A stretch of 64,000 nt of DNA. It comes from Candidatus Moraniibacteriota bacterium. GTDB taxonomy: Bacteria > Patescibacteriota > Minisyncoccia > Moranbacterales > UBA2206. The notes under the pieces are model-generated. The model saw only the letters and a list, made by a program, of their open reading frames with translations, did no database searches and was not told where the DNA came from. The stretch is taken from assembly GCA_026396175.1 (NCBI GenBank), contig JAPLXG010000008.1, positions 659 through 64,658 on the forward strand, given 5' to 3'. Below are positions 14,546-55,290 of the stretch, piece after piece. Numbering within the stretch: position 1 is the first letter of the stretch; every line of letters starts with the position of its first letter. The position numbers and the translations under genes are program-made.

Positions 14546-14590
14546 GGCTCTAAGAGCCCGTAGCAACGGGCTCTTAGAGCCTGCTTTTTA
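14546..14590. terminator. bidirectional intrinsic terminator between convergent genes
   Basis: 15-bp perfect stem GGCTCTAAGAGCCCG-tagcaa-CGGGCTCTTAGAGCC, followed by a T-rich run. Confidence 0.7.
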
Positions 14591-15733: not shown

Positions 15734-16979
15734 CTGAATTGGCCAATCGACTAAATCCGGCGATAATTAAAAATAGCGACAAAACGACCGGCGAATAAAT
15801 TGACGTTTCCACTAAAGAATGGGCGGAAGAAATTACCACGCTAACGGCGACGCAGAAAAATAAAACCTCTTTTGATTTTTTGAGAAAAATGAAAAATAGT
15901 GTTCCTAAAAATCCCAGCCACGCCAAAAGACTGACGATTCCTGTTTCTGCCGCAATATCGAGATAGTTACTGTGCGCATAAATTGGATCGCGATAATCCG
16001 CCGTCGCGCTAATCTCCAATGGATAATTGCCAATGCCCACACCAAGTAAGGGGTGGTCAACAATAACCACAAGCGCCTTTCTCCAAGTTTCAATCCGACC
16101 CTGATTTGAACCTTCCTGGAAGTTAAAACTAGAAAGAAAACGCTCCGAAATCGGACCAGGAATAATAAGAAAGCTCCCAAGACAAACAACCAAAATCAAC
16201 GCGCCTAGTTGATGCTTTTTTTTCAATCTACTAAGTAGCACGCCAATAGCTACCGCGAAGCCAGCAAATAGCCCCAAATATCCGCCGCGCGAAAAAGTCA
16301 GTAAATCCGTAAGTAGCAGCACAAAGAAAATAAACAAATAAATTTTATTTTTTAACTTTAAAAACAGTCCCAAGGCAAGCGGCAGCAGCATTCCCAGAAA
16401 AAATGCCAACATATGCGGGTCAGGAAAAGTGGCAATCGCCCGCAGATACGTCCGACCGGAAATATTCACCAGCCAACTTGGATTTTTGAGCACTGCCGCT
16501 GTCACATTTCCGCCCAGAAAAATCGGCGAAACATAGTTCGCCCAAAATTTATATGTCGCGTCTAGTCCAAAGATAAATTGAGCAGCGAATTGAGCTGCGC
16601 CAAGGAGTGCCACCAAAAATCCACCCCAGACCAAAAATCTCACCACTTTTATCATCTGCTCCTTAGAAGAAACTAAATCTGCCGCGACAAAATATAGCGG
16701 AAAAACAGAAAATAAAAACAACAGCTTTCTCACCGACCAGTCGCTATTTTTTGAAACAACAATCGAAAGGAGACTCAGAAAAAGAAAACTGGCTAGAAAA
16801 AAATTTACTTTGCCGCTTTCAATGAAAAGCTTTTTCCTTCTCAAGCCTTCCACCAGCCACACAAAAAACAACAGGAGCACAAACACCCGCGAACTCGCCA
16901 AATCCACCCCCGCACTCGGATTAAGCGCAACTTGAAAGGGCAGATAGGCGCAAAAAATTAGAAGTAGGTTGAATAACAT
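15717..16979 (-). CDS. O-antigen ligase/polymerase-family membrane protein
   Basis: 420 aa, polytopic. 'LLTFSRGGYLGLFAGFAV' and 'LLGVGIGNY' motifs resemble the Wzy_C family. Confidence 0.5.
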   Translation of the reverse strand: MLFNLLLIFCAYLPFQVALNPSAGVDLASSRVFVLLLFFVWLVEGLRRKKLFIESGKVNFFLASFLFLSLLSIVVSKNSDWSVRKLLFLFSVFPLYFVAADLVSSKEQMIKVVRFLVWGGFLVALLGAAQFAAQFIFGLDATYKFWANYVSPIFLGGNVTAAVLKNPSWLVNISGRTYLRAIATFPDPHMLAFFLGMLLPLALGLFLKLKNKIYLFIFFVLLLTDLLTFSRGGYLGLFAGFAVAIGVLLSRLKKKHQLGALILVVCLGSFLIIPGPISERFLSSFNFQEGSNQGRIETWRKALVVIVDHPLLGVGIGNYPLEISATADYRDPIYAHSNYLDIAAETGIVSLLAWLGFLGTLFFIFLKKSKEVLFFCVAVSVVISSAHSLVETSIYSPVVLSLFLIIAGFSRLANSDEKNS

Positions 16980-16982
16980 TTT

Positions 16983-17771
16983 TTAAAAACTAAAAAACCT
17001 AAATATTTTCAATAATACCGCCTCAAAAAACCCGCGATGTTTTTGAAAATAATAGTCCTGTGACTGATAATAGTTCTTTTTTTGTTCTTTTCTTTCCAAG
17101 AAACTTTTTCCCCCATAGTGTAACACAGAAAATTCAGGGAGATATGCTACTTTTTTGCCCAAAAGTTGGGTGCGATTACAAAGATCCACGTCTTCAAAAT
17201 AGGTAAAGAATTTCACGTCAAAACCGCCTAGTTGCAAAAATAACGCTCTGGGGATGAACATTGCCGTTCCCGCCACCCAAGAAACTTCCACCTTCTCACT
17301 GCTTTGCCAATATTTTTCATCCCCGGTTTTTCGCAAATTATTTTTTAAGACACTTCCGAGCGTAATCTTCCCTCCCGCACTCCATTTTTGCACACTACCG
17401 CCTGGTTCCACAAGCTTGGCGCCGATCACTCCCAAGGTCGAGTTATTTTCAAATTCCCGCGCGACAAGAGAAATGTCAGCTGAAATAATTTCCGCGTCAG
17501 GATTGAGAAAAAAAAGAATTTCTCCGACTGATTCTTTCGCTCCCAAGTTATTCGCGTTACCAAAGCCGCTATTTTGTGAGCTTTGAATAATTTTTATTCT
17601 AGGAAACTCATCCGTCAACCCACTAACCTCCGCTCTGGCGCCATTATTAACCACAATCACTTCAAAAGATATGCTGGAATCAATTTTCGCAAAAACAGAA
17701 AGCAAGCATTTTTCTAAATATGCCCGACTTTTAAAGTTCACAATGATTATAGACAGTATTACTTCTTGCAT
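16983..17771 (-). CDS. family 2 glycosyltransferase
   Basis: 262 aa. 'LSIIIVNFKSRAYLEKCL...VIVVNNGA' is a GT-A N-terminus. 'FEDVDLCNR' is the DxD-region motif typical of GT2 rhamnosyltransferase-like enzymes. Confidence 0.6.
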   Translation of the reverse strand: MQEVILSIIIVNFKSRAYLEKCLLSVFAKIDSSISFEVIVVNNGARAEVSGLTDEFPRIKIIQSSQNSGFGNANNLGAKESVGEILFFLNPDAEIISADISLVAREFENNSTLGVIGAKLVEPGGSVQKWSAGGKITLGSVLKNNLRKTGDEKYWQSSEKVEVSWVAGTAMFIPRALFLQLGGFDVKFFTYFEDVDLCNRTQLLGKKVAYLPEFSVLHYGGKSFLERKEQKKNYYQSQDYYFQKHRGFFEAVLLKIFRFFSF

Positions 17772-18631
17772 TTCAGTTTACTAAAATCCCGATAAGCTTT
17801 TTGCACGGCTAAATTTATTTCCGTCTTATTTTTTCTCACATCATTCCAGTTTTTCACTCTTCGCAAAAATGTATACGCGGGAATCCAAAGCTTAAGACAA
17901 TTTGGAACATTTTTGCGAAAAAATAAAAGCCCAGAAAGCACTAGCCAATACACCTTATTTTTTCTAACCTCTTCACTTTTTTCCAGGTGAGTAATCTGTG
18001 CGCCGGCCACAACCAAAAGTCCAAAGCCAGCTTTTTTCGCCCTAACGCTAAAATCCGCGTCTTCCCAATAAAGGAAAAAGTCTTCGTCCAGAAGGCCGAT
18101 TTTGGTAAAAACTTCCGCTCGCACCAGCATCGCGCATCCAGAAATAAAATCGGATCTGGTAAAATTACTTTCAATCAGCTCTTTCTTGTGCTCTGTCTTC
18201 ATGCGGAGCCAATCAATTTTTCCGCCGGAAAACCAAACTGCACGACCATCCCTGGCAAAAATCAACGGGCTCAAGATTCCTACCGTTTTATCGCTCTCGG
18301 CACTTTCAATCAACCGGCTCAAAAAATCCTTTTTCACCACCGTATCATTATTAAGCAGTAAAACATATTCCGCCATTCGCTCCAGGGAGTATTTTATTCC
18401 CACATTATTGCCGGCGGAAAAACCCAGATTGTGTTCATTTTTGATAAAAGTGGCGCGCGAAAAGCTTTGCCTTGCGCTTTCCAGGGACCCATCAATTGAA
18501 TTGTTGTCCACCGCTACGACTTCAAAGTTGGGGTAGCCCAAACAAAAAAGACTGGCGAGACTTCCCCGCAGACAGTCTTTGCCATTATAGTTCAAAACAA
18601 CGATACTAACTTTCGGATAAAGGCTTCTCAT
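17759..18631 (-). CDS. family 2 glycosyltransferase
   Basis: 290 aa. 'VSIVVLNYNGKDCLRGSLASL...VVAVDNNSIDGS' and 'YWEDADFSVR'. Confidence 0.65.
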   Translation of the reverse strand: MRSLYPKVSIVVLNYNGKDCLRGSLASLFCLGYPNFEVVAVDNNSIDGSLESARQSFSRATFIKNEHNLGFSAGNNVGIKYSLERMAEYVLLLNNDTVVKKDFLSRLIESAESDKTVGILSPLIFARDGRAVWFSGGKIDWLRMKTEHKKELIESNFTRSDFISGCAMLVRAEVFTKIGLLDEDFFLYWEDADFSVRAKKAGFGLLVVAGAQITHLEKSEEVRKNKVYWLVLSGLLFFRKNVPNCLKLWIPAYTFLRRVKNWNDVRKNKTEINLAVQKAYRDFSKLKCKK

Positions 18632-20057
18632 ATTCAGTAACGCTCTGCTTACTAATTATGCTAGTTATTTCTGAAATTTCCACTGCTTGAAATAATCCCA
18701 GGGCCAAGCTGTAGACACAAACGCTACCAAAGCCTAGCAGATAAAAATTGCTTGCGCGGAAAATAAAAAGGAATCCCGCCATTACCACACCGGAAAGCAC
18801 GATCCTTGCGATCTTTTCTACTCGAGGGAAGTAATTTAATTGTTTAAAGACGAGGTAGCCCGTCGCGATTGCCACAAAAGCTTCCGTAGCAAAAGAAATT
18901 GCGGCGGCCGCTACATAGGAAAAGAGCGGGATAAGCACCAAATTCGCCAAAACATTAAAAACCGCCGCCGCAGAAAGAATATACATCAGTTTTTTTTGCA
19001 GATTTCCAGCAATCAAAATTGCATTAAATAGGTTGCTGAAAAATATTGCTGTCATCGCGAAAACTAGGATGCGCAAAACCAAGGCCGACTCGGAAAATCC
19101 CGCGCCACCGATGAGATAGATGAGGCCGTTGGAAAGAAAAAGCGTTCCCACGACAAGCGGCACGGTGAGTAGGGCAAAAACCTTGAAAGTCTTATTGGAA
19201 ATATCAAAAAATCTTTTCTCATCACTGAAAATATGTTGAGAAATAATCGGAAAAATCAATCCCACAATCATCGATGGGAAAAAGGAAATGTTTTCCAAAA
19301 CCTTATAGGCAACGTTATAAATTCCCACCTCCGCATTGCTTTTCATAATCGACAAAAGAATCGTGTCGACCTTAAAGTAAACAAAAACCACGATGGCCAT
19401 AATTCCGATTGGATAGGACTCAAGGAGAAATTTTTTCCAATAGCCAAAATCAAACGCTAGCCGCACTTTGATATATTTTTTTGACCAAAAATATACCAGA
19501 AAAAAACTGGCTATCATATTAAACAAGAGCGAGGTGATGATCCAGGAAAAACTCAATCTCAGCTTAACCGCCAAAATCACAACAGCCAGCTGAACAACTT
19601 TTCCTAAAAGCTCTGAAATGGCCACCTTGTCCATCGCCAAGTTTTTTTGAAAAACCCCATTTAAGATCTGATAGCTGGAAGAAAAAACCAGTGAGGCCGC
19701 AATAATCACAATGCCCCATTTAACCTCTTGGGAATAAGGTAAAAACAGAATTACGAAAAATGAAAGCAAAAAAATTGCCAGCGAAGAAATTATCCGCATC
19801 GAAAAAGCATTTGCCATAATCTCCTCCTCGTTTGCTCCGGGACGAGATATTTCGCGCGTCGAAAATTGATAGAGACCAAAATCGGAGACGGCGGAAAAGA
19901 AAGAAAGGAACGCGAGGACAGTAGCATAATCTCCAAAACCGCCCTTGCCCAAATAGCGGGTAATAAAACCGATTGCGGCAAGTGCGAGCGCTGTAGAGAG
20001 TATCTTAGAAATACTGCTCACCAGCACGTTATAGGCTATTTTTCTGGCAATAACCAT
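18606..20057 (-). CDS. MOP-superfamily polysaccharide flippase (Wzx-like)
   Basis: 483 aa, about 12-14 TM helices. The N-terminal 'KIAYNVLVSSISKILSTALALAAIGFITRYLGKGGFGDYATVLAFLSF' is typical of Wzx/polysaccharide-biosynthesis proteins. Confidence 0.65.
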   Translation of the reverse strand: MVIARKIAYNVLVSSISKILSTALALAAIGFITRYLGKGGFGDYATVLAFLSFFSAVSDFGLYQFSTREISRPGANEEEIMANAFSMRIISSLAIFLLSFFVILFLPYSQEVKWGIVIIAASLVFSSSYQILNGVFQKNLAMDKVAISELLGKVVQLAVVILAVKLRLSFSWIITSLLFNMIASFFLVYFWSKKYIKVRLAFDFGYWKKFLLESYPIGIMAIVVFVYFKVDTILLSIMKSNAEVGIYNVAYKVLENISFFPSMIVGLIFPIISQHIFSDEKRFFDISNKTFKVFALLTVPLVVGTLFLSNGLIYLIGGAGFSESALVLRILVFAMTAIFFSNLFNAILIAGNLQKKLMYILSAAAVFNVLANLVLIPLFSYVAAAAISFATEAFVAIATGYLVFKQLNYFPRVEKIARIVLSGVVMAGFLFIFRASNFYLLGFGSVCVYSLALGLFQAVEISEITSIISKQSVTEYEKPLSES

Positions 20058-22490: not shown

Positions 22491-23867
22491 ATGACCAACG
22501 AAGAACTCTGGCAATCAGCGCTTAATGAAATAGAGTTGTCTATTTCTAAGGCCAACTTTATCACCTGGCTCAAGGGGACTAGGATTATTTCTAACACGGA
22601 AGGAAAAATTGTTATTAGTGTTCCCAATGGTTTTGCCAAGGAATGGTTGGAAAATAAATATAACGCCTACATCCTGAAAGCTTTGCGCAACATCCAACCA
22701 GACATTAAATCCGCCACCTGCCTTATCGCCACACCCAAAGAAGAATATCTTCCCCGCAAAGAATCAATGATGGATGCGATCATTGCTCCGCAAAAAAATG
22801 ATTCGCGCATAGAAAAAAAGAATTTTACGGTAAACATCGAAAATAATCTTAACCCCAAATATACTTTTGAAAATTTCATCATTGGCGGAAATAATGAACT
22901 AGCACACGCCGCTTGCGTAGCAGTATCCCAAAATCTTGGTAAAATCTATAACCCGCTTTTCATTTATGGCGGAGTGGGCCTCGGGAAAACCCACCTCATC
23001 CAATCAATCGGCAACAAAATCCTCGAGAAAAACCCTGCGTTTAAGGTAAAATACATCACTTCAGAAAGATTCACCTCCAACCTAATTGACGCCCTGCAAA
23101 ACCAAAAAATCAATGAGTTTAAGGAATATTACCAAAAAATGGATATCCTGATTATTGATGATATTCAGTTCATTTCCGGCAAAGAAAAAACGCAGGAAGA
23201 ATTTTTTCACATTTTCAATTATCTCTACCAGCTCAACAAGCAAATCGTGCTTAGTAGTGATCGTCCACCCAAATCGATTCAAATCCTTGAGGAAAGATTA
23301 CGTTCGCGCTTTGAAGGAGGAATGATTGCGGACGTCTCCAGCCCAGACCTAGAAACGCGCCTCGCGATTTTGAGAAAAAAAGTAGCCGATGAAGAGCTGG
23401 AAATCAGTGAGGACGCCTTGCTTTTTGTCGCTACTAACATCAAAAATAATATCCGCGAACTAGAAGGTGCCCTAAACCGACTAATTGTCTCTTCTCAATT
23501 GACCGGCGCGGAAATAACTGTCGCCTTTGCTAAAAACCAACTGTCCGAGCTAATTTCCAGTGGGATTAAGAAAGGTATCACACCAAAACACATCATTAAA
23601 GCCGTTTCTGCTTTTTATGACATTGACCAAAATGATCTGGTTTTGAAAAATCGTAAAAAAGAAATTGTCAGACCCAGGCAGGTGGCAATGTACCTACTGC
23701 GCAGTGAGATAGATTTTTCCTATCCTGGTATTGGTGAAAAGTTAGGCGGGAGAGATCACACAACAGCCATCCACGCTTTTGAAAAAATTTCTAAAAACCT
23801 CCTAACCGATGCCAAGTTAAATGAAGAAATTGCTCAAATTAAAAACCAACTTTACAAATTAGACTAA
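22491..23867 (+). CDS. dnaA: chromosomal replication initiator DnaA
   Basis: 458 aa. Walker A 'GGVGLGKTHL', 'IDDIQF' and the C-terminal DNA-binding domain 'RQVAMYLLRSEIDFSYPGIGEKLGGRDHTTAIHA'. Confidence 0.9.
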   Translation: MTNEELWQSALNEIELSISKANFITWLKGTRIISNTEGKIVISVPNGFAKEWLENKYNAYILKALRNIQPDIKSATCLIATPKEEYLPRKESMMDAIIAPQKNDSRIEKKNFTVNIENNLNPKYTFENFIIGGNNELAHAACVAVSQNLGKIYNPLFIYGGVGLGKTHLIQSIGNKILEKNPAFKVKYITSERFTSNLIDALQNQKINEFKEYYQKMDILIIDDIQFISGKEKTQEEFFHIFNYLYQLNKQIVLSSDRPPKSIQILEERLRSRFEGGMIADVSSPDLETRLAILRKKVADEELEISEDALLFVATNIKNNIRELEGALNRLIVSSQLTGAEITVAFAKNQLSELISSGIKKGITPKHIIKAVSAFYDIDQNDLVLKNRKKEIVRPRQVAMYLLRSEIDFSYPGIGEKLGGRDHTTAIHAFEKISKNLLTDAKLNEEIAQIKNQLYKLD

Positions 23868-24134: not shown

Positions 24135-25295
24135 ATGAAACTCATTTGCACACAAGATAATTTTAAAAAAGCGATCACTAATTCTGAGCGAATCGTTTCT
24201 CGACAAAATACATTACCAATTCTAAATAATATTCTCTTAGAAGCGAGTAAAGGTTATTTGAAAATTACCGCGACTAACTTGGAAATTGGAATTGAGATTA
24301 AAATTGGCGCTAAAATAGAAAAAGAAGGTCGCATTACTGTTCCTGCTAAACTCCTGGGTAATTTTTCCAGCAACTTGACTGAAGGAGAAAATATGGACAT
24401 TGAGGCGACAGATCAAAATTTGAAAATTAAAAATGGCTCAACAAAAGCGATGATAAAAGGTTTTTCCGCCGAAGACTTTCCTTTAATTCCCCAGAAAAAC
24501 ACCGAAAAAGCGCTAGGTATTGCAATAACCCAATTGAAAGATATTTTTTCCAAAATTCTTATCTCTGTGGCGCATAATGAAGCGCGGCAAGAACTGACTG
24601 GGGTGAATGTTACTTTTGGGGAAAAGGAATTACTTTTCGCTTCCACGGACGGATTTCGTCTTTCGGAGTATGTCTTGAAACTAAATGAAGGTAGTGTGAA
24701 TCGGGAGCGCTACAGCGAGTTGATGGAAAAAACTAAAAACATTATTATCCCAACCAACACACTACTAGAGTTAAATCGGATTATTTCCAATAATTTTGAG
24801 GATGGGGAGGTGGGAATTTTTATTGAAGAAGGGCAGATTTTCTTTGAGGTGAGGGAGATAAAGTTGGTTTCTCGCCTGATTAATGGAAAATATCCGGAAT
24901 ATAAACACATAATGCCGCAAAACTATAAAACTACAATTACTGGTGAGCGCAAAGTGTTGCAAAACGCCCTGAAAATCGCGGGAGTTTTTGTGAATAATAA
25001 ATCCAATGAAGTGGTGCTAAAAATTGACGCCGGTGAAAATAAAATAATTATCGACACTAAGAGCGCGGAGGTGGGCGAAAACTCAACAGAAATCAATTTC
25101 AAAGCCCAAGGGGAATCCCAAGAAATTGTTTTTAACTTGAAATATTTACTCGAAGGGATTAATGTGGTTACGACGAATAGTTTAGCCCTATCGGCCAACA
25201 GCGATTCTTCTCCGGTGGCAATTCGCGAGTTGGACACAAAAACCGGCGAACCGCTGAATAATTTTACCTATATTATTATGCCAATAAAAAATTAA
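24135..25295 (+). CDS. dnaN: DNA polymerase III beta sliding clamp
   Basis: 386 aa, immediately downstream of dnaA/oriC. Three-domain clamp architecture; N-terminus 'MKLICTQDNFKKAITNSERIVSRQNTLPILNNILLEA'. Confidence 0.85.
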   Translation: MKLICTQDNFKKAITNSERIVSRQNTLPILNNILLEASKGYLKITATNLEIGIEIKIGAKIEKEGRITVPAKLLGNFSSNLTEGENMDIEATDQNLKIKNGSTKAMIKGFSAEDFPLIPQKNTEKALGIAITQLKDIFSKILISVAHNEARQELTGVNVTFGEKELLFASTDGFRLSEYVLKLNEGSVNRERYSELMEKTKNIIIPTNTLLELNRIISNNFEDGEVGIFIEEGQIFFEVREIKLVSRLINGKYPEYKHIMPQNYKTTITGERKVLQNALKIAGVFVNNKSNEVVLKIDAGENKIIIDTKSAEVGENSTEINFKAQGESQEIVFNLKYLLEGINVVTTNSLALSANSDSSPVAIRELDTKTGEPLNNFTYIIMPIKN

Positions 25296-25870: not shown

Positions 25871-27211
25871 ATGAGTATTGATAATCAAGATGAATATAAA
25901 ATAGGTATGACGGAATTACCGAAAAAACTTGTCGAGAAAGAACAGTCGGTGTTTTTGAAAATTTTAAGCGATCCTCAGTATGGGCAAATTTTTAAAGAAG
26001 AGCAGTTGAAATACAAAGAGGAGGAAGTCGGTCGCGAAGCTACGGGGAAAGTTGATTTTAATGTGATTCCAACACAAGAAATACACAAAAGAGCCAAGGA
26101 AAGGTTTGTGAAAGAATTTTCCCAACAAGCGACGAAATATCCGGAAACAAAATTATTAGCAGAAAAACAAAATCTTTCTGAAAATAAGCAACAGCTAGAT
26201 CAGTCGATTGAAAAAGACACAGCTAACTTAAAAAGCGCCCTGAAAAAACTGGACATACCGGAAAATGTTGCAAATAAGGCGCCAAGTATTCTGATGGCAA
26301 AAGCAAGCTCGGAGAGAATGGATAAAAAATTAGCTAAAACAGAAGAAGCTCTTAGGCAAGAAGAAAAACAAGGAGAGTTAATGGGATCATTCTTAGAAAG
26401 AGAATATGGAGCCAAAAAAGACAGTCATATCGAAAAAGCAAAAGAGGAATTGCCGGAAAAGGGAGTGGCAGAATTTTTAGCGGATAAGCCGGAAGATAAA
26501 AACAATGAACTAAAAAGTGAAATTGGGGAAAAAATAGAAAAAGCTAATCAAGAGGGAAGGCCGTTGGAAAAAGACCAAGAAGAAGCATTGCGCAAAAAAG
26601 CGGTTGGGGGACTTTCGCAAGAATCGACGGAACAAAAAGAAACAGAAAGCAGCGTTCTTGATGATATGGAGCAACCTAGCGTAGGTGAATTAAAGAATGA
26701 AGACAGAGAAAGTGGCGGGGAAAATAGTGAACAGAAATCAGCAGGAGTGGCCTTGGAAAAAATCAGAATGCATGAATTTTCCGGCTATACTAAGGATTTA
26801 GTGAACACTTTACGCAGAAGAGAGGATGATAATCTTTCGCCTATTATCGATCCTAAAGCTATAGGCTATTTGGCTCAGACTGCAGATCAGCTGGAAGATT
26901 TGTTTCGTAATAAAAAAGCTAAGCCAGAAGATGTTAACCAAGCTATCTTAAAAGTCGTAGCAGTTATTAATGCTATTGGAAAAGATTTGCCAAGAACGGG
27001 GATGGTTAGGGATAATTCAGAGAGTCTGAGGCGAGTTGCCTATAACCTGAGAAACTTAGGAGAAAGCAGCCGCAATATTATGATTCAGCTTGGTGGGAAG
27101 GAAGATCCTAATCTCAAAGAAACCGTTGGTCGTTTTGGTCAACTTCTTAATCTCACAGAAGAAAGGTGGGGCTATGTGAACAGAAAAGTAGGCATTTTGG
27201 AGAATAGATAG
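25871..27211 (+). CDS. hypothetical highly charged (E/K-rich) coiled-coil protein
   Basis: 446 aa. Possible extended -10 promoter (TGcTATAAT) at 25826-25834. No enzymatic motifs. Confidence 0.45.
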   Translation: MSIDNQDEYKIGMTELPKKLVEKEQSVFLKILSDPQYGQIFKEEQLKYKEEEVGREATGKVDFNVIPTQEIHKRAKERFVKEFSQQATKYPETKLLAEKQNLSENKQQLDQSIEKDTANLKSALKKLDIPENVANKAPSILMAKASSERMDKKLAKTEEALRQEEKQGELMGSFLEREYGAKKDSHIEKAKEELPEKGVAEFLADKPEDKNNELKSEIGEKIEKANQEGRPLEKDQEEALRKKAVGGLSQESTEQKETESSVLDDMEQPSVGELKNEDRESGGENSEQKSAGVALEKIRMHEFSGYTKDLVNTLRRREDDNLSPIIDPKAIGYLAQTADQLEDLFRNKKAKPEDVNQAILKVVAVINAIGKDLPRTGMVRDNSESLRRVAYNLRNLGESSRNIMIQLGGKEDPNLKETVGRFGQLLNLTEERWGYVNRKVGILENR

Positions 27212-29948: not shown

Positions 29949-30902
29949 CTAGCTTTGCAACTTTTTTTTGAAAATGTCAAGTAATTCTTGATACATTTCT
30001 AGCATATGGGGTTTTTCTTCGGGAGTGAAAAATAAGCCTGGCATCGAGTTGAGCTCGACGATCCAGGGCTTTTTGTTTTCATCAAACATCAGATCAATCG
30101 AATATACGCGCGGCTCAAAAGTGGTGAAAACTTCATTGGCATAGGCGATAATCGGTCGCAGAGATTTGGGCAGTTTTTCTTTTGGGACGATAATGAGTGA
30201 TCCACCCTGAGCAAGGTTAGCCAGAAGGCTGCCTTCTCTTGGTTCTCGAATGTAGGAATAGATTAGTTTGTTATTAATAAAAACTAATCGTAAGTCATGC
30301 ATTTTTTTGCTCACTCCGGGCACGCCGCAGGATGAGTCGATAAACTCCTGGGCGATATTTTCTTTCTCAATTTTAATTTTGCTAGCATTTTTCTTGTCAA
30401 TAATTTGCACATCTTTCCCGCCACTTTCGCTAAGCGGCTTTAGGACGATTTTGGAAGATTTTATTTTTGGCAAAATATTTTTCAACTCACACGAGTTTTT
30501 TATGAGCCAACTTTTTTTCGACCACTTAGCAAAAATTAAACTGGTGGTGAATTTATCATCAACAAGCCGAGTAAAGTTCAAATCATTAATGAATTGATAT
30601 TTAGCACTAATCAATTCTTTTTTATGATAAACCTCCAAACGCGCTTTAGTTTTGTCATAGATCAAATCAGGCTGGATATTTTTAACTTTTTTCCAGTTGC
30701 CACCTTCGCCCTCATAGATCCAGGCGTATTTGAAAAGGTGCTTTTCATAATCATACCACTCGTAGGACGCGCGATACATTTGAATTTCATTTTTTTTGCA
30801 AAGCGAATAAAAATATTCATAGGAATATTGGTAGTCTTTATTGGAAAATGGCTTGGCTTTTTTCCAGTCGCTTTTACCAAAAAGAATCATCACTTTTTTC
30901 AT
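29949..30902 (-). CDS. ATP-grasp superfamily ligase (YheC/D- or TTL-like)
   Basis: 317 aa. 'IVLKPLSESGGKDVQII', 'HDLRLVFINNKLIYSYIREPREGSLLANLAQGGS' and 'IVELNSMPGL' match the ATP-grasp nucleotide-binding and Mg-binding signatures. Confidence 0.55.
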   Translation of the reverse strand: MKKVMILFGKSDWKKAKPFSNKDYQYSYEYFYSLCKKNEIQMYRASYEWYDYEKHLFKYAWIYEGEGGNWKKVKNIQPDLIYDKTKARLEVYHKKELISAKYQFINDLNFTRLVDDKFTTSLIFAKWSKKSWLIKNSCELKNILPKIKSSKIVLKPLSESGGKDVQIIDKKNASKIKIEKENIAQEFIDSSCGVPGVSKKMHDLRLVFINNKLIYSYIREPREGSLLANLAQGGSLIIVPKEKLPKSLRPIIAYANEVFTTFEPRVYSIDLMFDENKKPWIVELNSMPGLFFTPEEKPHMLEMYQELLDIFKKKLQS

Positions 30903-30931
30903 AGTAGTTTTAATAAATATAAATTTAGATT

Positions 30932-31888
30932 TTAGGCAATCAAAAGATTTACCAATTCCTTCGCGATATTTATTTTCGGATAAGTTTTTTCGAAACCTTC
31001 AAATGAAGCAAAGATATTTAGTTCTATGATCAGATAGTCATCTTTTGTTTTGAGCAGATCTATGCCAACATAATCCAAGTCTAATTTTCTGGCCACTTTT
31101 TCTGAAAAGCGTTCCATTTTTTTGTCTGCGTATTTTTTAATTTTTCCTCCCAACGAGTAGTTATTTTTCCACTCACCATTTTGCGCAGTTCTCTTCATAA
31201 TGCCCATTGATTTTCCTCCAATAACAAGAATGCGGAAATCCCCTTGGTTTTTAATGAAGGGCTGAAAGACTAAGTTATCCGCCCTTTTTGTTTCTAATAG
31301 TTTGCGTAAATCGGGGAGCGTGCTAATTTTCCAAACTTGCTCTCCCATGCTTCCGTCGCTTTGTTTTACGACAATAGGTAGCTTTATGTCGAAGTTTTCA
31401 AGGCTTTCGCAAATATGCTCAAATTTATTGTCAGTAAAATGAAGGGTTGGGATGGCTGAGAGATTTTTTTCAAAATAGGCTTGCGAAAGAGTAAATTTAT
31501 TATAGTGAGGATGGCTTAGGATGAAGTTTCGGTTAATCACCTTAATGTTGAATTTACGACATTGATCAAATAAAAGAAATAATTCATTAGACAGGTTGAA
31601 AGAAAATTGCTGGTTCTTTTTGCGCAGAATAACTTCATAGCGAGGAATATCAAAAAAAACGGCGCAAAATTTTTTCAAATTGATCTTTTTGTCAGCTGAA
31701 AACAATTCACCATTTTTAAAAACGAGCGATTTCCAGCGAATAAATTCATAGGGGCAATTTATTTTTTTCAACTGGTCAATTGCCCTATCTGTTCTGTGGG
31801 ATGATTCTTTCACGGAAATAATAAGCACTTTTTTCATAAAATAATCATAGCAGCCGTTAAAATTTATTTTACCACCATACGTTAGCAA
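30932..31888 (-). CDS. RimK-like ATP-grasp ligase
   Basis: 318 aa. 'LPIVVKQSDGSMGEQV', 'DFRILVIGGKSMGIMKRTAQNGEWKNNYSLGG' and 'YVGIDLLKTKDDYLIIELN'. Confidence 0.6.
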   Translation of the reverse strand: MLTYGGKINFNGCYDYFMKKVLIISVKESSHRTDRAIDQLKKINCPYEFIRWKSLVFKNGELFSADKKINLKKFCAVFFDIPRYEVILRKKNQQFSFNLSNELFLLFDQCRKFNIKVINRNFILSHPHYNKFTLSQAYFEKNLSAIPTLHFTDNKFEHICESLENFDIKLPIVVKQSDGSMGEQVWKISTLPDLRKLLETKRADNLVFQPFIKNQGDFRILVIGGKSMGIMKRTAQNGEWKNNYSLGGKIKKYADKKMERFSEKVARKLDLDYVGIDLLKTKDDYLIIELNIFASFEGFEKTYPKINIAKELVNLLIA

Positions 31889-32868
31889 GCTTCTTTTTTA
31901 GAGAGGTTGCTTTTTTGCGTAGTGCTGAGTTTTAGGATGAAATTTATAATATCCTTAATAACATTTCTCGATTTTCCAAAAGTAGGGTTGTAATGGATGT
32001 AGATATCCGGTTTTCCATTTATCTCTAGAATTCCGAATATTTGTTCTTTTGGGTCGATTGAAATATCTTCGCAAATTATATCAATACCGGCCAGATAATC
32101 ACCAATCGCATCAGTGGCTTTAGCGCAAATGGAAACAATTTTTTTATTAACCAACTCTGTGACGTCGCGAGTTTCTCCACCTTCAGCTAAAGAGGAACTC
32201 TTTTTGATGGAAGCGATTTCTCCAGCATTTAAAATATGCTCAAGGGAAAACCCTTGTTCTTTGAGTATTTTTTCTAGCACTGAATCGATCGGAGTTTTTC
32301 GGTGCGTGCTTGTTTGTTTTTCTTCGATAAGTTTTTTAATGGTGGACACGCCGTCCCCGAAAACTCTGGGCGGGATCATTTCGAGGGCGCCAATGACCCG
32401 ATTATCCAGCATAAGCACGCGATATTCTTTGCCAAAAATCATTTCTTGAGCGATGAGAGACCGGAAATTGGAAATTTCTTCCGTTAATATCGCTACCGCC
32501 TCCTCGGGGGTTTTGATGTAGGGAAAGATTCCCTGACTATTGGAACCGGAAGAATCCTTGATGATTATGGGGTATTTAAGGCTAAAAAGCTTAGTAGTTG
32601 CATCCGCTATTTCGAAATTTTTTCTAAAGAAAAAAACTGTTTCAGGTGTTGGCAAAAAACGTCGCCTAAGCAGTGTATAAGTCAGATCTTTATGTGTTGT
32701 TGCTCCGGCGATGCTGATAAAGTTTTTGGCAATTCTGAATTTTCTCGTTATGAGAAAAACCTTTCCGCCGACGTGGATGTTATAGCAACCTCGTTCAGGA
32801 ATGACTTCTTCAAACGTTCCTCCCATTTCTTCAACGACCTTCTTGATCAGCGGCGGGTTTTTTATCAT
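31882..32868 (-). CDS. ATP-grasp ligase resembling the cyanophycin-synthetase N-terminal domain
   Basis: 328 aa. 'YRVLMLDNRVIGALEMIPPRVFGDGVSTIKKLIEEKQ...LAEGGE' parallels the CphA-N and D-Ala-D-Ala-ligase-like substrate-binding region. 'LAGIDIICEDISIDPKEQIFGILEINGKP'. Confidence 0.55.
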   Translation of the reverse strand: MIKNPPLIKKVVEEMGGTFEEVIPERGCYNIHVGGKVFLITRKFRIAKNFISIAGATTHKDLTYTLLRRRFLPTPETVFFFRKNFEIADATTKLFSLKYPIIIKDSSGSNSQGIFPYIKTPEEAVAILTEEISNFRSLIAQEMIFGKEYRVLMLDNRVIGALEMIPPRVFGDGVSTIKKLIEEKQTSTHRKTPIDSVLEKILKEQGFSLEHILNAGEIASIKKSSSLAEGGETRDVTELVNKKIVSICAKATDAIGDYLAGIDIICEDISIDPKEQIFGILEINGKPDIYIHYNPTFGKSRNVIKDIINFILKLSTTQKSNLSKKEAC

Positions 32869-34263
32869 TTATTTACTTGAATCAATTAAAAATTTCTTCA
32901 AATTTACTTTTCCGATAATCATTGAGTACTGCATATGCGAACGGTCAATCAGCGTTATTTTTGTGGAAGTGGTCACATTGTCCATAATAAATTCGACGTT
33001 AATCATCGGGCGGTAAGTGTAGCCATTAGAAGATTTGACCGGGATGGTGGATGCAATATCAGGAATATTTTTATATATCGCCCAGCGCTTTTCTTTGTCT
33101 AAATTTTTCAAGTCTTCATAGGGCATTTTCAGTTTTTCAAACTCATCGATAGTTTGGGTGAAGCCTAGCTGTTTTGCCAGCTCATTATCGATCGATGACC
33201 AGTCAGCGCCGGTGTCAATCTTGGCTTCCACCTCAATTTCTTTGCCATCTTTTCCAATCAATTTTACTTTTTCCACTGTGCCGATCACTTTCTTTCCGGA
33301 AATTTCTTCCAGCTCTTCTTCGATTTCTCCGCCAAAAAGATCCATTCCCACGCGGATACCTTTTTTAATTGTTTTGATCTTGATGCCAGCCGCTTTTTTC
33401 AGGCGCCATTTCAATCCATCAAGGTTGGCGACTTGGATAGCCAGACCCGGGCGGGCATTTAGTTCTAAAATTACCGGCCCACGTTCTTTATCAATTGCAA
33501 TGTCCACACCAAGAAAACCCAAGCCGGAAATTTCTTGCGAGCGCACAGCCAAGTTTAAAATATCCATCCAATAGGGGATTTTAATTCCCGAAAGCAAAAG
33601 TCTTGTGCCGGGAAGATATTCAATAATTTTTTGCTTGCCCGCAACGGCTGTCGTGGTGACCCCAGAAGCCAAGTCGATGCCGACCCCAATTGCGCCTTGC
33701 GCGAGGTTAGCTTTTCCATGGGATTCTTTGGTTGGCAGGCGCAGCATGGCCATAATGGGCATTTTATTAAAAACAATAATCCGGATGTCGGGAATACCTT
33801 TGAAGGCATAGGGTTTAAAAAGTTTCAAAAGTTTCAGGCGTTCTTCAAAAAAAGCCGTGTCGGGAATGCCAGACAAGGAATAGGACCCGTCCAAAATATT
33901 TCGTGTGTGATTTTTGAGGTCATCAATCGTCACGATTGACCCATCGGCCTTTATCCAGGCGTCAGCTCTATTCTTCTTGCGTCCATAGATAACAATAATG
34001 CCTTCACCACCAAAGCCGCGATTAGGTTTCAGAACAAAGCTATCGGGCAGTTTTTGCCAATCAAAATTATCCAAATCTTCTAGGGTTTTGATTTGGGAAA
34101 TGAGGGCGGGAACTGCGATGTCGTTTTTCTTGAGGATTCTTTTGCTAAGAAGTTTGTTGTCAGCAAGGCGCTTAGCGGAAGTGCGATTAAGTGGTCGGAT
34201 GTACTCCAAATTGCGGGAATTCATTCCGAGAACGCCACGACTTTTTTTAATAAATTCAAACAT
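32869..34263 (-). CDS. RimK-related alpha-L-glutamate-ligase-like ATP-grasp fused to a retropepsin-like 'ATP-dependent zinc protease' domain
   Basis: 464 aa. N-terminal ATP-grasp ('FVLKPNRGFGGEGIIVI', 'DIRIIVFNKMPIMAMLRLPTKESHGKANLAQGAIGVGIDL', 'GVDIAIDKERGPVILELNARPGL'). The C-terminal ~130 aa carry 'AKIDTGADWSSID', the aspartyl-protease-like signature of the RimK-associated Zn_protease family. Confidence 0.6.
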   Translation of the reverse strand: MFEFIKKSRGVLGMNSRNLEYIRPLNRTSAKRLADNKLLSKRILKKNDIAVPALISQIKTLEDLDNFDWQKLPDSFVLKPNRGFGGEGIIVIYGRKKNRADAWIKADGSIVTIDDLKNHTRNILDGSYSLSGIPDTAFFEERLKLLKLFKPYAFKGIPDIRIIVFNKMPIMAMLRLPTKESHGKANLAQGAIGVGIDLASGVTTTAVAGKQKIIEYLPGTRLLLSGIKIPYWMDILNLAVRSQEISGLGFLGVDIAIDKERGPVILELNARPGLAIQVANLDGLKWRLKKAAGIKIKTIKKGIRVGMDLFGGEIEEELEEISGKKVIGTVEKVKLIGKDGKEIEVEAKIDTGADWSSIDNELAKQLGFTQTIDEFEKLKMPYEDLKNLDKEKRWAIYKNIPDIASTIPVKSSNGYTYRPMINVEFIMDNVTTSTKITLIDRSHMQYSMIIGKVNLKKFLIDSSK

Positions 34264-34265
34264 AA

Positions 34266-34401
34266 GGTTTATCCCGCACTAACTTTGTGCTGGCACAACG
34301 TGCCAAGTAGCTTTTTATGATAGATAAATATTTTTTTCAACTTTTTTGTTTAGCGCCAGCAGTTGCTGATAAAAAGCACAAAGTTAGTGCGGGACAAGTT
34401 A
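34266..34401. promoter_or_regulatory. 20-bp perfect inverted repeat bracketing the promoter region of the ATP-grasp operon
   Basis: 'cccgcactaactttgtgct' (34268-34286) and 'agcacaaagttagtgcggg' (34382-34400), separated by ~95 bp of AT-rich sequence. Confidence 0.4.
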
Positions 34402-35064
34402 GTTTCTTTTGATAATCTCTCCGAAACGCAAATATTCACTGAAGCGCAATCCCGTCCATTTGCCTAAAATAATATTCATTGGGATTGTGAAGAGAATAGT
34501 CCAGGGATAGCTAGCGATAAATTGGATAAGCGCTTCCCAACTGGCAAGGTAAAATCCCAAAATAGAAATAATCAATGTTTCAGTGGCGAGAAGAATAGCG
34601 GCGCGGTCACCTTTTTCAATCTGCACCGCGATGAATTTTTCCACGAGCGTAATCATGATGAGGATCGGGAAGATTGACACCGAAGCGAGGCCGGTTCTTT
34701 TTAGGCTTCCGCCGATGACCAGCATAACGAGAATGGAAAGCGCAACGATTGTGAGCATAATGGCCACGCGGGGAAGGTAGAGCAGGCGAAAAGATTTAAG
34801 TGCGATTCTCATTAGCATCCCGATCAGGATAATCACCACAAAGATTACGATGCCATATTTGATGCCATTGGTTGCCAAAAAGGCAAAGGTAACGAGCAGT
34901 GGTGTGTAGATACCAAAAGCTTTGATTCCCACGACTTGTCGCAAAAAGGCGATTAGTGTCGCAATGATCGGAAGCATCAGAATTAACCTGATTGTTTCAA
35001 AAGGCACGCCTTCATTGAGAAAAAAAGTCAAGATGGGGCTGATGTGAAAATTGAGTTCGTTCAT
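34399..35064 (-). CDS. 7-TM integral membrane protein associated with the ligase/protease cassette
   Basis: 221 aa, about 7 hydrophobic helices, no soluble domain. Its position matches the 7TM partner of the RimK-related-ligase / zinc-protease cassettes described from comparative genomics. Confidence 0.45.
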   Translation of the reverse strand: MNELNFHISPILTFFLNEGVPFETIRLILMLPIIATLIAFLRQVVGIKAFGIYTPLLVTFAFLATNGIKYGIVIFVVIILIGMLMRIALKSFRLLYLPRVAIMLTIVALSILVMLVIGGSLKRTGLASVSIFPILIMITLVEKFIAVQIEKGDRAAILLATETLIISILGFYLASWEALIQFIASYPWTILFTIPMNIILGKWTGLRFSEYLRFGEIIKRN

Positions 35065-35555
35065 TGTTTAAGTTTTAAGCTAATTATGGCGCGACTGTTA
35101 GCATGACACACGGCAATCGCCAGTGCGTCAGCCACATCATCAGGCTTCGGGATGCATTTCAAATGCAAAACACTTTTAATCATTTGCTGCATCTGTTTTT
35201 TTTCAGCTCGGCCATAGCCCGTGAGAGCTTGTTTGACTTGGAGCGGAGTGTAACTAAACACCTTAACATTATTTTGGCTTAGTGTCAAGAGAATTGCTCC
35301 GCGAGATTGTGCCACCTGGATGACGGTTTTTTGGTTTTTGAAGAAAAAAAGGCTTTCAATCGCCGCTTCCTGTGGTTTGTGTTTTTGGATTATTTTTGCC
35401 AAGTCGTCTGAAACCTCCAAAATCCGCGCGTCATCACTATTAACCTTCTCGGTGCTGATGTGGCCATAGGCCAAAGGCAGGAGTTTATCACCCTTAATTT
35501 CAATAATAGCCCAGCCAGTGGTGGCGGTGCCGGGGTCAATTCCAAGTATTTTCAT
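35061..35555 (-). CDS. ruvC: crossover junction endodeoxyribonuclease RuvC
   Basis: 164 aa. 'MKILGIDPGTATTGWAIIE' is the RNase H-fold catalytic N-terminus; 'GYGRAEKKQMQQM'. Confidence 0.85.
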   Translation of the reverse strand: MKILGIDPGTATTGWAIIEIKGDKLLPLAYGHISTEKVNSDDARILEVSDDLAKIIQKHKPQEAAIESLFFFKNQKTVIQVAQSRGAILLTLSQNNVKVFSYTPLQVKQALTGYGRAEKKQMQQMIKSVLHLKCIPKPDDVADALAIAVCHANSRAIISLKLKQ

Positions 35556-35644: not shown

Positions 35645-35813
35645 GTCATCCTGAGCGTATCCACCATCTGCCAGTGACAGATGTGGACGGAGTCGAAGGA
35701 TCTGCGTTCTATTTTTGGGAGCTTTTTATGATTAAGTAAAGCTTTGGGTTGTGGCAAGTAGATCCTTCGACTACGTCCGAGTACGGACTTCGCTCAGGAT
35801 GACATGATTTTTA
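35645..35813. repeat. MITE-like inverted-repeat element, copy 1
   Basis: Termini 'gtcatcctgagcg...gagtcgaaggatctgc' and 'gatccttcgactacgtccg...cgctcaggatgac' form ~35-bp imperfect inverted repeats around a ~90-bp core. Related copies at 40870-41008 and 55127-55290. Confidence 0.7.
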
Positions 35814-35830: not shown

Positions 35831-36547
35831 TTAGCCAATATTGTTATAAATCTCACTCACATCCTCATGGTCATCCAGAAGTTCCATGAGATTTTCGTAG
35901 CTTTCACGGGTTTTGTCGTCAACCGTGATGGTGGTTTTGGGCAGATAAATCAGGCCCGAATCAAGTATTTTAAGGTTAACTTTGGCAATATTTTCTCGCA
36001 CGCGAGCAAAATCTTTCTGATCAGTAATGATATTTAATAAATCATCTTCCAGGAACACATCGCGCGCCCCAGCTTCAATGGCTTGCATTTCCAATTCATC
36101 GGCGTCTTTATTTTCCAGATCAATGCTAATACTTCCGACTCGTTCAAAATTCCACATTGCCGAGCCTTTTTCTCCCAGCTTCGAATTATTTTTTGTGAGA
36201 ATGGTTTTTACTTCTGAAACCGTACGGTTTTTATTATCGGTCGTGCAAGAAATGAGCAGCATCAGTTCGCCCGGCCCAACCGCCTCATAGAGAATTTCTT
36301 CAATCAAAGCGCCCTTAATTTCACCCGTTCCGCGCTTGATGGCTCGCTCGATGTTTTCTTTTGGCATATTCATCGCCCGCGCGCGGTCAACAGCCATCCT
36401 TAGTTGAAAGTTGGTATCAAGTTTTCCGCCACCATCCCGCGCGGCAATAGTAACAAGCTTTCCATATTTAGTGAAAATCTTACCTCTTTTGGCATCATTT
36501 ACGCCTTTTCGTTGTTTTATTCCCGCCCAATGTGAGTGTCCGGACAT
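35831..36547 (-). CDS. yebC: YebC/PmpR-family DNA-binding transcriptional regulator
   Basis: The canonical N-terminus MSGHSHWAGIKQRKG starts at 36547. The track ORF extends to 36604 only by reading through the CCTGCCTGCCGGCGAGGCAGG palindrome at 36578-36598. Confidence 0.8.
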   Translation of the reverse strand: MSGHSHWAGIKQRKGVNDAKRGKIFTKYGKLVTIAARDGGGKLDTNFQLRMAVDRARAMNMPKENIERAIKRGTGEIKGALIEEILYEAVGPGELMLLISCTTDNKNRTVSEVKTILTKNNSKLGEKGSAMWNFERVGSISIDLENKDADELEMQAIEAGARDVFLEDDLLNIITDQKDFARVRENIAKVNLKILDSGLIYLPKTTITVDDKTRESYENLMELLDDHEDVSEIYNNIG

Positions 36548-36700
36548 AAGCTCATGAAGCATGAAACATATAGCATGCCTGCCTGCCGGCGAGGCAGGTA
36601 ACAAAATACGAGATACTAATTGTTTCGCGCTTTTTCGTTAACTTCCTTATAATTCAAGCGTAGCATTTTAAATGGGGAAATTCAAGGGAAAAATAGAAAT

Positions 36701-40869: not shown

Positions 40870-41008
40870 GTCATCCTGAGCGGAGTCCTGTACTCAGGAC
40901 GCAGTCGAAGGATCTGCTAACCGTAATCCAAAGCTTTCTGTTTAATAGTTGAGCTTACGATAATGGAAAACAGATCCTTCGACTTCGCTCCGCTTCGCTC
41001 AGGATGAC
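40870..41008. repeat. MITE-like inverted-repeat element, copy 2
   Basis: 'gtcatcctgagcggagtcctgtactcaggacgcagtcgaaggatctgc ... cagatccttcgacttcgctccgcttcgctcaggatgac'. Confidence 0.7.
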
Positions 41009-55126: not shown

Positions 55127-55290
55127 GTCATTCTGAGCGTAGCGCAGCGGAGTCGAAGAATCTGCTATGGGTTATCGTGGGCTTTGCTATGTTTTTCGGG
55201 AGCTTACGGCAATGGATGACAGATCCCTGCCTACCGGCAGGCAGGCTTCGACTACGTCCGTCCGCCAGCTGGCGGATCGCTCAGGATGAC
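55127..55290. repeat. MITE-like inverted-repeat element, copy 3, with a nested CCTGCC...GGCAGG palindrome
   Basis: 'gtcattctgagcgtagcgcagcggagtcgaagaatctgc ... gcaggcttcgactacgtccgtccgccagctggcggatcgctcaggatgac'. The palindrome lies at 55225-55245. Confidence 0.7.

Follow-up and report, generated by a model that had tools for sequence, protein, structure and literature searches.

The analyses presented here suggest that a five-gene module on the minus strand of a Candidatus Moraniibacteriota contig (GenBank JAPLXG010000008.1; the window, that is the whole stretch analysed, measures 64,000 nt) may well encode a Candidatus Moranbacteria variant of the Rlo/Rim-type systems, extended by swappable accessory ligases. 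The module consists of a seven-transmembrane (7TM) protein, a fusion of an ATP-grasp ligase with a retropepsin-like protease, and three further ATP-grasp ligases, which we call LigB, LigC and LigD (Table 1). On the best reading its products would work together at the membrane, building an acidic oligopeptide, trimming it and giving it additions that differ between species; the peptide is possibly destined for the cell envelope. We put the probability of the whole statement, mechanism included, at about 0.55; the identity of the parts, judged from their sequences, is close to assured, and the mechanism taken by itself is a tentative proposal, standing at slightly under even odds. What is new is a Patescibacteria-wide minimal core in which ligase and then protease are joined in a single chain, together with a slot in which accessory ligases are rapidly swapped.

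Profile searches of the window proteins against Pfam and NCBIfam bore out a preliminary description of the locus, which had recognized four ATP-grasp ligases, one of them fused to a retropepsin-like domain, and a 7TM protein. All four ligases carry the ATP-grasp Lys and Asp...Glu-x-Asn motifs, no signal peptide or transmembrane segment is predicted in any of them, and their pairwise identities do not exceed 22%, so that recent duplication does not account for them. As that description had also expected, they do not belong to unrelated families of primary metabolism: Ddl, PurK and carbamoyl-phosphate synthase are ruled out by the profile scores, the best matches being RimK, the G domain of cyanophycin synthetase (CphA) and TIGR02291. 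In the fusion protein the ligase domain matches PF14397 (ATPgrasp_ST; 228.6 bits against a cut-off of 31.4, 1e-67) and TIGR02291 ('alpha-L-glutamate ligase-like'; 295.7 bits, narrowly under the cut-off of 314.2). Against the RimK equivalog model NF007764 it reaches 16.6 bits where 331 are required, and the RimB model gives the fusion 17.2 bits (cut-off 200). K79, E140/E141, D159, R161, R175, N186, D254, E267 and N269 are the invariant residues of the ligase domain, and the catalytic residues are invariant across a set of 19 diverse fusions (35–82% identity). An AlphaFold2 (AF2) model of the fusion, with a predicted local distance difference test score (pLDDT) of 79, comprises an ATP-grasp domain, a disordered linker and a beta-rich C-terminal domain with a helical insert; a Foldseek search with this model found RimK, LysX/ArgX and Ddl as the best solved matches, and PsnB as a further match.

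The C-terminal domain matches PF05618 (35.1 bits, cut-off 27), the NCBIfam models RloA1 (1.5e-11) and RloA3 (3.6e-11), and PDB 9g58_A, a 'putative ATP-dependent zinc protease domain-containing protein' (8e-8). The D-T-G-A aspartyl-protease signature that the preliminary description had read at this end of the protein is intact at aa 350–353 (nt 33205–33216), within AKIDTGADWS (aa 347–356, confirmed by translation). Across the 19 fusions the catalytic Asp, D350, is at least 90% conserved and R418 is invariant; in a closer homologue set R441 is invariant and K348 nearly so. By spacing, K348/D350/R418/R441 match K46/D48/R114/R137 of RloA; homology indicates that the protease has retained its catalytic Asp together with the basic positions used by RloA to bind poly-glutamate. 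Foldseek with the whole fusion, a search dominated by the ligase domain, returned ATP-grasp matches only, and the protease fold therefore rests on the sequence profiles and on the secondary structure of the model, which is beta-rich with pLDDT 83–93 over aa 328–450.

Between the two domains lies the acidic linker GGEIEEELEEISGK, in and around which F310, G311, G312, E313, E316, E317, E319, I321, S322 and G323 are invariant in the closer homologue set. A Glu-rich segment thus joins the ligase to a protease whose relatives cut Glu-rich sequences, and the linker might act as a pseudo-substrate or be processed by the fusion itself; no more than 3 Glu follow one another in it, far short of the 8 that RloA needs. 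Length and architecture are the same in over 100 homologues that share 66% identity or more. Among 50%-identity cluster representatives, searched exhaustively, 2005 relatives of the fusion were found at E < 1e-3; their architectures include the same fusion, the fusion with an added MATCAP carboxypeptidase (~790 aa), with YdjC or with a second ATP-grasp domain, and, in Oscillatoria (P0248), a 7TM–ATP-grasp fusion.

The 7TM protein scores 108.8 bits on PF14402 (cut-off 25; 4e-31) and aligns with the NCBIfam RloB model over positions 312–507 of 508 only (87 bits, cut-off 900); it is the counterpart of RloB's membrane portion and lacks the transglutaminase domain. With a mean column identity of 77% among 22 homologues, against 69% for the ligase, it is the more conserved of the two, and the motifs RQVxGxKAFGIYTP, RLLYLPR, VEKFxxVQIEKG and GKWTGLRxxEYxRF are invariant. 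We suggest that its N-terminus lies outside and its C-terminus inside, with the invariant motifs facing the cytoplasm. The Oscillatoria 7TM–ATP-grasp fusion would place the C-terminus and the ligase together in the cytoplasm; RloB (transglutaminase) and the Kerfeldbacteria homologue in locus L087 (PKD domains) have extracytoplasmic N-terminal domains, which would place the N-terminus outside; and the charges in the sequence are distributed positive-inside. The AF2 model is a helical bundle (pLDDT 75), with which a structure search found no significant solved homologue.

Amidoligases are said to have been the subject of a comparative-genomics paper by Iyer et al. in 2009. The statement in the preliminary description that the parent cassettes are known from comparative genomics only is outdated by work on rloABC (PMC12239564) and on RimBK (PMC11957791). 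In Pseudomonas aeruginosa, rloABC (PA1766–PA1768) has been studied by genetics and crystal structures (Lormand et al., mBio 2025, PMC12239564): the secreted retropepsin RloA cleaves stretches of 8 or more Glu by means of K46, D48, R114 and R137, RloB joins an inactive transglutaminase domain to a 7TM domain, and RloC is an ATP-grasp protein of the cytoplasm. The hypo-osmotic lethality of a triple rloA mutant disappears when rloB or rloC is lost, rlo mutants have cell-shape, beta-lactam and hypo-osmotic phenotypes, Rlo systems also affect biofilm formation, and 96% of the RloB distribution falls in Proteobacteria (PMC12239564). The module described here resembles Rlo in its TIGR02291-like PF14397 ligase, its PF14402 7TM protein and its PF05618 retropepsin with DTG and basic substrate-binding residues, in encoding the three functions together (rloABC is co-transcribed; here the 7TM and fusion genes are adjacent and co-oriented), and in its links to the cell envelope. 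It differs in that the protease is fused, without a signal peptide, to the C-terminus of a cytoplasmic ligase, whereas RloA is secreted; in that the 7TM protein lacks the periplasmic inactive transglutaminase domain of RloB; in that one to three extra ATP-grasp ligases follow; and in its host, a Patescibacterium, which falls outside the mainly proteobacterial range of RloB. Because it has neither the RloB transglutaminase domain nor a secreted RloA, we class it as an Rlo/Rim-like variant and not as a member.

The Rim systems provide the second point of reference. RimB cuts poly-Glu, removes Glu tails from ribosomal protein S6 and stimulates poly-alpha-L-Glu synthesis by RimK, which makes free poly-Glu, and a natural RimB–RimK hybrid from Desulfotalea psychrophila, with the protease N-terminal, shows protease activity as a purified protein (Little et al., JBC 2025, PMC11957791). 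Both in RimABK/RimBK and here a cytoplasmic ATP-grasp glutamate ligase would work with a poly-Glu-cutting retropepsin, and single-chain hybrids of the two exist. RimBK is, however, protease-then-ligase with a true RimK, whereas here the order is ligase-then-protease and the ligase is of RloC/ATPgrasp_ST type; given the opposite domain order and the different ligase, the two fusions appear to be independent. Rim systems, moreover, have no 7TM partner, and their target is S6.

To place the module among its relatives, species-representative genomes were scanned, giving 80 Moraniibacteriota/Parcubacteria loci in which open reading frames (ORFs) were called and classified against the window proteins; the 68 loci analysed for the slot were selected for having PBP1A as downstream flank. 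Every locus examined, down to 35% identity, has the 7TM and fusion genes side by side and on the same strand. In the 68 loci the frame yebC–ruvC–7TM–fusion–[slot]–PBP1A is kept, with DciA, dnaN and dnaA beyond, and more distant Patescibacteria keep only the adjacent 7TM and fusion genes. In Kerfeldbacteria (L087) PKD domains stand at the N-terminus of the 7TM protein and a PBP1A gene remains close by, in L089 the fusion includes MATCAP and adjoins mreB, and in L086, L088 and L090 the pair stands in other contexts. On these comparisons, the 7TM plus ligase–protease pair is the conserved core across Patescibacteria. Several metagenome-assembled genome (MAG) records with a Moranbacteria-type locus (L009, L012, L015, L051, L066, L073 and others) are titled 'uncultured Bdellovibrionales', 'Micavibrio', 'Bathyarchaeia' or 'Fimivivens', which are probably taxonomic mislabels. 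Literature searches for Patescibacteria with ATP-grasp and RimK, or by Pfam names and accessions, found no papers.

The slot, by contrast with the core, varies widely. In the 68 loci it holds 0–5 genes, altogether 155 ORFs in ~47 clusters at 40% identity, in 53 different arrangements; the four-ligase set is no fixed system but one of at least 53. Judged by cluster representatives, most clusters are distinct ATP-grasp families and a few proteins are without a family. The slot also holds glycosyltransferases of the GT4 and GT2 families (GT4 directly after ligase family C1 in 10 of 11 loci), a MATCAP/QEGLA carboxypeptidase paired with a YdjC deacetylase-like protein, and Mur-type ligases that match the M domain of cyanophycin synthetase best (183 bits), over MurC–F. 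Two of these Mur-type ligases match M-domain positions 481–860, namely L001:9428-12645 (183 bits) and L012:13220-14434 (107 bits); L001 has in addition a LigB-type, CphA-G-like gene, and there a cyanophycin-synthetase-like enzyme appears to be split into separate genes.

The combination LigB–LigC–LigD is found in the window alone among the 68 loci. Pairs of loci with fusions at least 85% identical carry the same cassette in 1 of 8 cases (mean Jaccard 0.38), and for pairs at 75–85% the mean Jaccard index falls to 0.09; this low sharing between close fusions indicates that slot content is uncoupled from core phylogeny. Gene order in relatives, which the preliminary description had proposed to compare, is conserved for the core, and in the closest relative (L091) for all four ligases. 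The fusion there is 94% identical to that of the window, LigB 88% and LigD 89%, but LigC only 39%, and blastn of L091:9411-10325 against window positions 30932-31837 aligns the flanks and not this LigC gene (304 aa in L091). We interpret the difference, from the alignments, as a single-gene allelic replacement.

Each accessory ligase has its own affinities. LigB matches cyanophycin synthetase TIGR02068 over residues 211–473 of 862 (168 bits against a cut-off of 850; 2.5e-49) and the CphA1 structure PDB 7lg5 (3.7e-27); it is a stand-alone protein resembling the CphA G domain and the GshAB C-terminal domain. The preliminary description was thus right to relate it to cyanophycin synthetase but had called it 'N-like', although the aligned part of the synthetase is the ATP-grasp G domain and not the N domain proper. 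Its motifs IIKD and GID...EIN are conserved within the LigB cluster, and a LigB-type gene occurs in 9 of the 68 loci. LigC matches PF08443 (RimK; 96.6 bits, 1.8e-27) and the RimK structure PDB 5zct (1.7e-11), and scores below the cut-offs of rimK_fam TIGR00768 (114.5 against 143.4 bits) and of the RimK equivalog NF007764 (47.9 against 331); weak NCBIfam matches to MvdC and MvdD (6e-4) were also seen, and the motifs VVKQ and GID...ELN are conserved within its cluster. Its longest ORF opens with a TTG, and homologues align only from M18 (MKKVLII); the true start is probably the ATG at 31837, which leaves a gap of 44 nt to LigB, and the overlap at 31882-31888 recorded in the preliminary description is probably an ORF-calling artefact. 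LigD gives weak matches to RimK, ATPgrasp_ST, YheCD and TTL, and a profile of its family finds RimK 7qys (6.5e-10), then LysX and GshB, and weakly TTLL6. K155, D270, E283 and N285 are invariant in the family, which is the commonest accessory module in relatives (19 copies across the 68 loci).

Taking these data together, we propose the following mechanism. The ligase domain of the fusion would dock on the 7TM protein, at its conserved cytoplasmic face and tail, and, driven by ATP and through an acyl-phosphate intermediate, would add acidic residues (most likely Glu) to a carboxylate acceptor. The protease domain, as a homodimer, would trim or release the acidic chain, and may also stimulate the ligase, by analogy with the effect of RimB on RimK. 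LigB (CphA-G-like), LigC (RimK-like) and LigD could each add further residues, which would make the final oligopeptide species-specific, and the 7TM protein would hand the product to, or anchor it at, the cell envelope. The link of the product to the envelope, and with it the cell-surface, cell-wall or pilin target envisaged in the preliminary description, is circumstantial: it draws on the glycosyltransferase and YdjC modules of sister loci, on PBP1A or MreB as neighbours and on the envelope defects seen in rlo mutants. A peptide-ligation and trimming system related to cassettes of RimK-like ligase, 'zinc protease' and 7TM protein, as the preliminary description had outlined it, fits the evidence, and this proposal explains the constant 7TM plus ligase–protease core better than any of the rivals considered below.

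Several points weigh against it. The amino-acid specificity of the four ligases is drawn from distant relatives (the Foldseek matches of the fusion are 13–20% identical), and the TIGR02291 cut-off is narrowly missed by the fusion. In Pseudomonas the secreted RloA would clear an exported product outside the cell, a logic that may not apply to the cytoplasmic protease found here. Export by the 7TM protein is a guess, since its fold has no solved homologue, and the adjacency of PBP1A, seen in Moranbacteria and Kerfeldbacteria only, could reflect nothing more than shared gene order around oriC.

ATP-grasp D-aspartate ligases modify the stem peptides of enterococci and lactococci, and interpeptide bridges vary between species. 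The accessory ligases, and perhaps the whole module, might accordingly add side-chain or cross-bridge residues to the stem peptide of a peptidoglycan precursor; the neighbouring PBP1A gene and the variation from species to species would then both be accounted for. In favour are the adjacency of PBP1A in Kerfeldbacteria and in the 68 loci (for which it was a selection criterion), that of MreB in L089, the Mur-type ligases of some cassettes and the cell-wall-like phenotypes of rlo mutants (PMC12239564). We nevertheless regard this as unlikely: the Rlo-type ligase, the poly-acidic-specific retropepsin and the 7TM protein of the invariant core are not known peptidoglycan enzymes, more distant relatives keep the core but lose the adjacency of PBP1A, the Mur-like genes match the M domain of cyanophycin synthetase best (at the 183 bits given above) and not MurC–F, and no best match is Ddl or MurT-like.

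RimK tails ribosomal protein S6, and TTL/TTLL enzymes tail tubulin. By extension the ligases could add a Glu-rich C-terminal tail to a protein, which the protease (and in relatives also MATCAP) would remove, giving a reversible regulatory mark. LigC and LigD are indeed nearest RimK, with weak TTLL6 matches, RimB strips Glu tails from S6 (PMC11957791), and MATCAP, of the C-terminal tyrosine carboxypeptidase family, is fused to or encoded beside the core in relatives. The parallel with the tubulin cycle of TTL/TTLL and MATCAP/CCP enzymes, in which a ligase adds C-terminal residues and a carboxypeptidase of the MATCAP family (fused or adjacent in the relatives here) removes them, is an analogy only, there being no MATCAP gene in the window. 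A tagging function is improbable in our view, given that LigC fails the RimK equivalog and rimK_fam cut-offs and that a near-identical genome carries in its place an allele of 39% identity, which does not resemble the behaviour of an enzyme whose protein substrate is conserved. A search of the window found no rpsF and, near the locus, no gene for a protein ending in Glu-rich sequence (ORF 4059-5909 alone in the window has an acidic C-terminus), and the obligatory 7TM partner and the glycosyltransferases would be left unexplained.

That the module makes a cytoplasmic cyanophycin-like or other poly-amino-acid storage polymer, with the retropepsin as depolymerase, is very unlikely. LigB aligns with the G domain of CphA1 (PDB 7lg5, 7wac; ~211–473) that extends the peptide C-terminus, sister cassettes in L001 and L012 also encode an M-domain-like ligase, giving a split CphA-like pair, and RimK makes free poly-Glu (PMC11957791). 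LigB, however, is without N and M domains, and a canonical cyanophycin synthetase can therefore not be encoded in the window, which contains neither an M-domain gene nor a cyanophycinase; LigB-type genes are confined to the 9 loci noted above while the core is constant, and the membrane partner and the rapid turnover of the cassettes would go unexplained. Maturation of a ribosomally synthesized and post-translationally modified peptide by graspetide/microviridin-type ATP-grasp enzymes, with the protease removing the leader, can practically be dismissed: in its favour are only the weak LigC matches to MvdC/MvdD and the presence of PsnB among the Foldseek matches of the fusion, and against it stand best families that are peptide-backbone amino-acid ligases, not macrolactone or macrolactam formers, and gaps (0, 44, 29 and 85 nt from the fusion through PBP1A) with no room for a precursor gene, the one larger gap, of 135 nt, being a hairpin insertion missing in relatives. 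An anti-phage defence system was also considered and dropped, as PADLOC gave no match at E <= 1e-3 for the five module proteins.

Table 1. Features of the module and its flanks (window positions; strand as given)
Feature	Positions	Strand	Remarks
yebC	35831-36604	-	two genes 5' of the 7TM gene
RuvC	35061..35555	-	PF02075 at 5.8e-50; upstream neighbour kept by synteny in relatives
7TM membrane protein, 221 aa	34399..35064	-	PF14402
Hairpin, 23-nt arms + 83-nt loop	34269..34397	-	strain-specific insertion in the 135-nt 7TM–fusion gap
Fusion protein, 464 aa	32869..34263	-	RloC-type ATP-grasp ligase + acidic linker + RimB/RloA-type retropepsin
ATP-grasp ligase domain, aa 7-292	33388..34245	-	PF14397, TIGR02291
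Acidic disordered linker, aa 311-326	33286..33333	-	pLDDT <50; conserved
Retropepsin-like aspartic protease domain, aa 322-460	32884..33300	-	PF05618, RloA models, DTGA
LigB, 328 aa	31882..32868	-	CphA G-domain-like ATP-grasp
LigC, probably 301 aa	30932..31837 (longest ORF start: 31888)	-	RimK-like ATP-grasp
LigD, 317 aa	29949..30902	-	orphan ATP-grasp, RimK/GshB/LysX/TTL group
PBP1A, class A penicillin-binding protein, 857 aa	27290..29863	-	PF00912 + PF00905

All module genes lie on one strand between ruvC and PBP1A, in the transcription order yebC, ruvC, 7TM, fusion, LigB, LigC, LigD, PBP1A; the 7TM gene, said in the preliminary description to follow the ligases, precedes them and is the first of the module, and the adjacency of PBP1A to the ligase genes was read correctly. 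The start of the 7TM gene overlaps the ruvC stop by 4 nt, spacing is operon-like, and a scan between the module genes found no convincing intrinsic terminator. Three other sequencing runs (L092–L094) assembled the locus identically. The exact fusion protein is deposited at NCBI as a Candidatus Moranbacteria MAG protein, in keeping with the Patescibacteria-like genome that had been surmised from the letters.

The hairpin that separates the 7TM gene from the fusion gene does not belong to the system. The preliminary description had a 20-bp perfect inverted repeat bracketing the operon's upstream region; its arms (34269-34291 and 34375-34397) are 23 nt long with one mismatch and a 19-nt perfect core, and since they occupy the 7TM–fusion gap the repeat is internal to the operon. 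In ~70 related loci this gap has a median of ~12 nt, and at the same position L091 has 15 nt, TTTAAGGAGGAGCTT. Three independent assemblies of the same organism contain the identical insertion in the same orientation; being identical there and missing from relatives, it is real and strain-specific, with no sign of inversion. The predicted RNA fold (-53.5 kcal/mol, z = -7.35) pairs the stop-codon region of the 7TM gene with the start-codon region of the fusion gene, and we suggest that the insertion may be tolerated because self-folding would keep the stop and start codons close and so preserve translational coupling. A repeat family was rejected, as the arms occur nowhere else in the 64-kb window, and so was an inverton (invertible promoter), the three assemblies having the same orientation and a promoter scan of the loop being empty; no recombinase gene was noticed beside the locus, although no search aimed at recombinases was made.

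The window also contains three intergenic palindromic elements of ~140–165 nt (35645-35803, 40870-41008 and 55127-55290), with terminal arms GTCATCCTGAGCG...CGCTCAGGATGAC and an inner arm GTCGAAGGATCT/AGATCCTTCGAC; chance would give 0.06 arm matches where six were found, and the copy at 35645-35803 lies between yebC and ruvC, just upstream of the module. None of the three matches Rfam, which at gathering thresholds found nothing in the 64-kb window, so that the hairpins belong to no known RNA family.

Beyond PBP1A, at a distance of ~2–5 kb, lie dnaA (22491-23867, plus strand) and dnaN (24135-25295, plus strand). This proximity, with the minimum of cumulative GC skew at ~22–24 kb of the window, indicates that the module adjoins the probable replication origin, and relatives share the synteny of the module with the dnaA/dnaN region. 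A 446-aa, Lys/Glu-rich, highly charged ORF without an assigned family (25871-27211, plus strand), also found in the independent assemblies L092 and L093, sits between PBP1A and dnaN, where most relatives encode DciA. Further off, co-oriented ORFs at 14588-20057 (minus strand) resemble, judged by their N-terminal sequences alone, membrane proteins and glycosyltransferases of a surface-polysaccharide cluster.

Finally, the slot invites comparison with variable surface-polymer loci (O-antigen, capsule, teichoic acid) and with stepwise peptide assembly by L-amino-acid ligases or Mur-type enzymes. As in the former, conserved flanks enclose a slot of enzyme genes exchanged between close relatives, and each enzyme would add one building block, but the exchanged modules here are mostly ATP-grasp peptide ligases and not glycosyltransferases. 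Near-identical genomes differ by one ligase allele, and the fast exchange of modules suggests diversifying selection on the structure of the peptide, in organisms that live attached to other cells. It is conceivable, if rather doubtful, that the slot is a recombining 'peptide-code' island, in which swapped ligases, glycosyltransferases and trimming peptidases produce a lineage-specific non-ribosomal (glyco)peptide on the envelope. If this were true, the structure made by the island could set host attachment or phage susceptibility of these episymbionts, and the island would be a peptide-ligase counterpart of O-antigen and capsule loci, indicating what Rlo-type systems make generally.

For the Rlo family, the Patescibacteria variants provide independent comparative clues to how such systems work: the single-chain ligase–protease, 7TM–ligase fusions elsewhere, the recruited glycosyltransferase, YdjC, MATCAP and Mur-type genes, and the PBP1A or MreB neighbours. 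The compact four- or five-gene operons could serve for heterologous reconstitution, and the clues together point to a membrane-coupled machine that would make and trim an envelope peptide.

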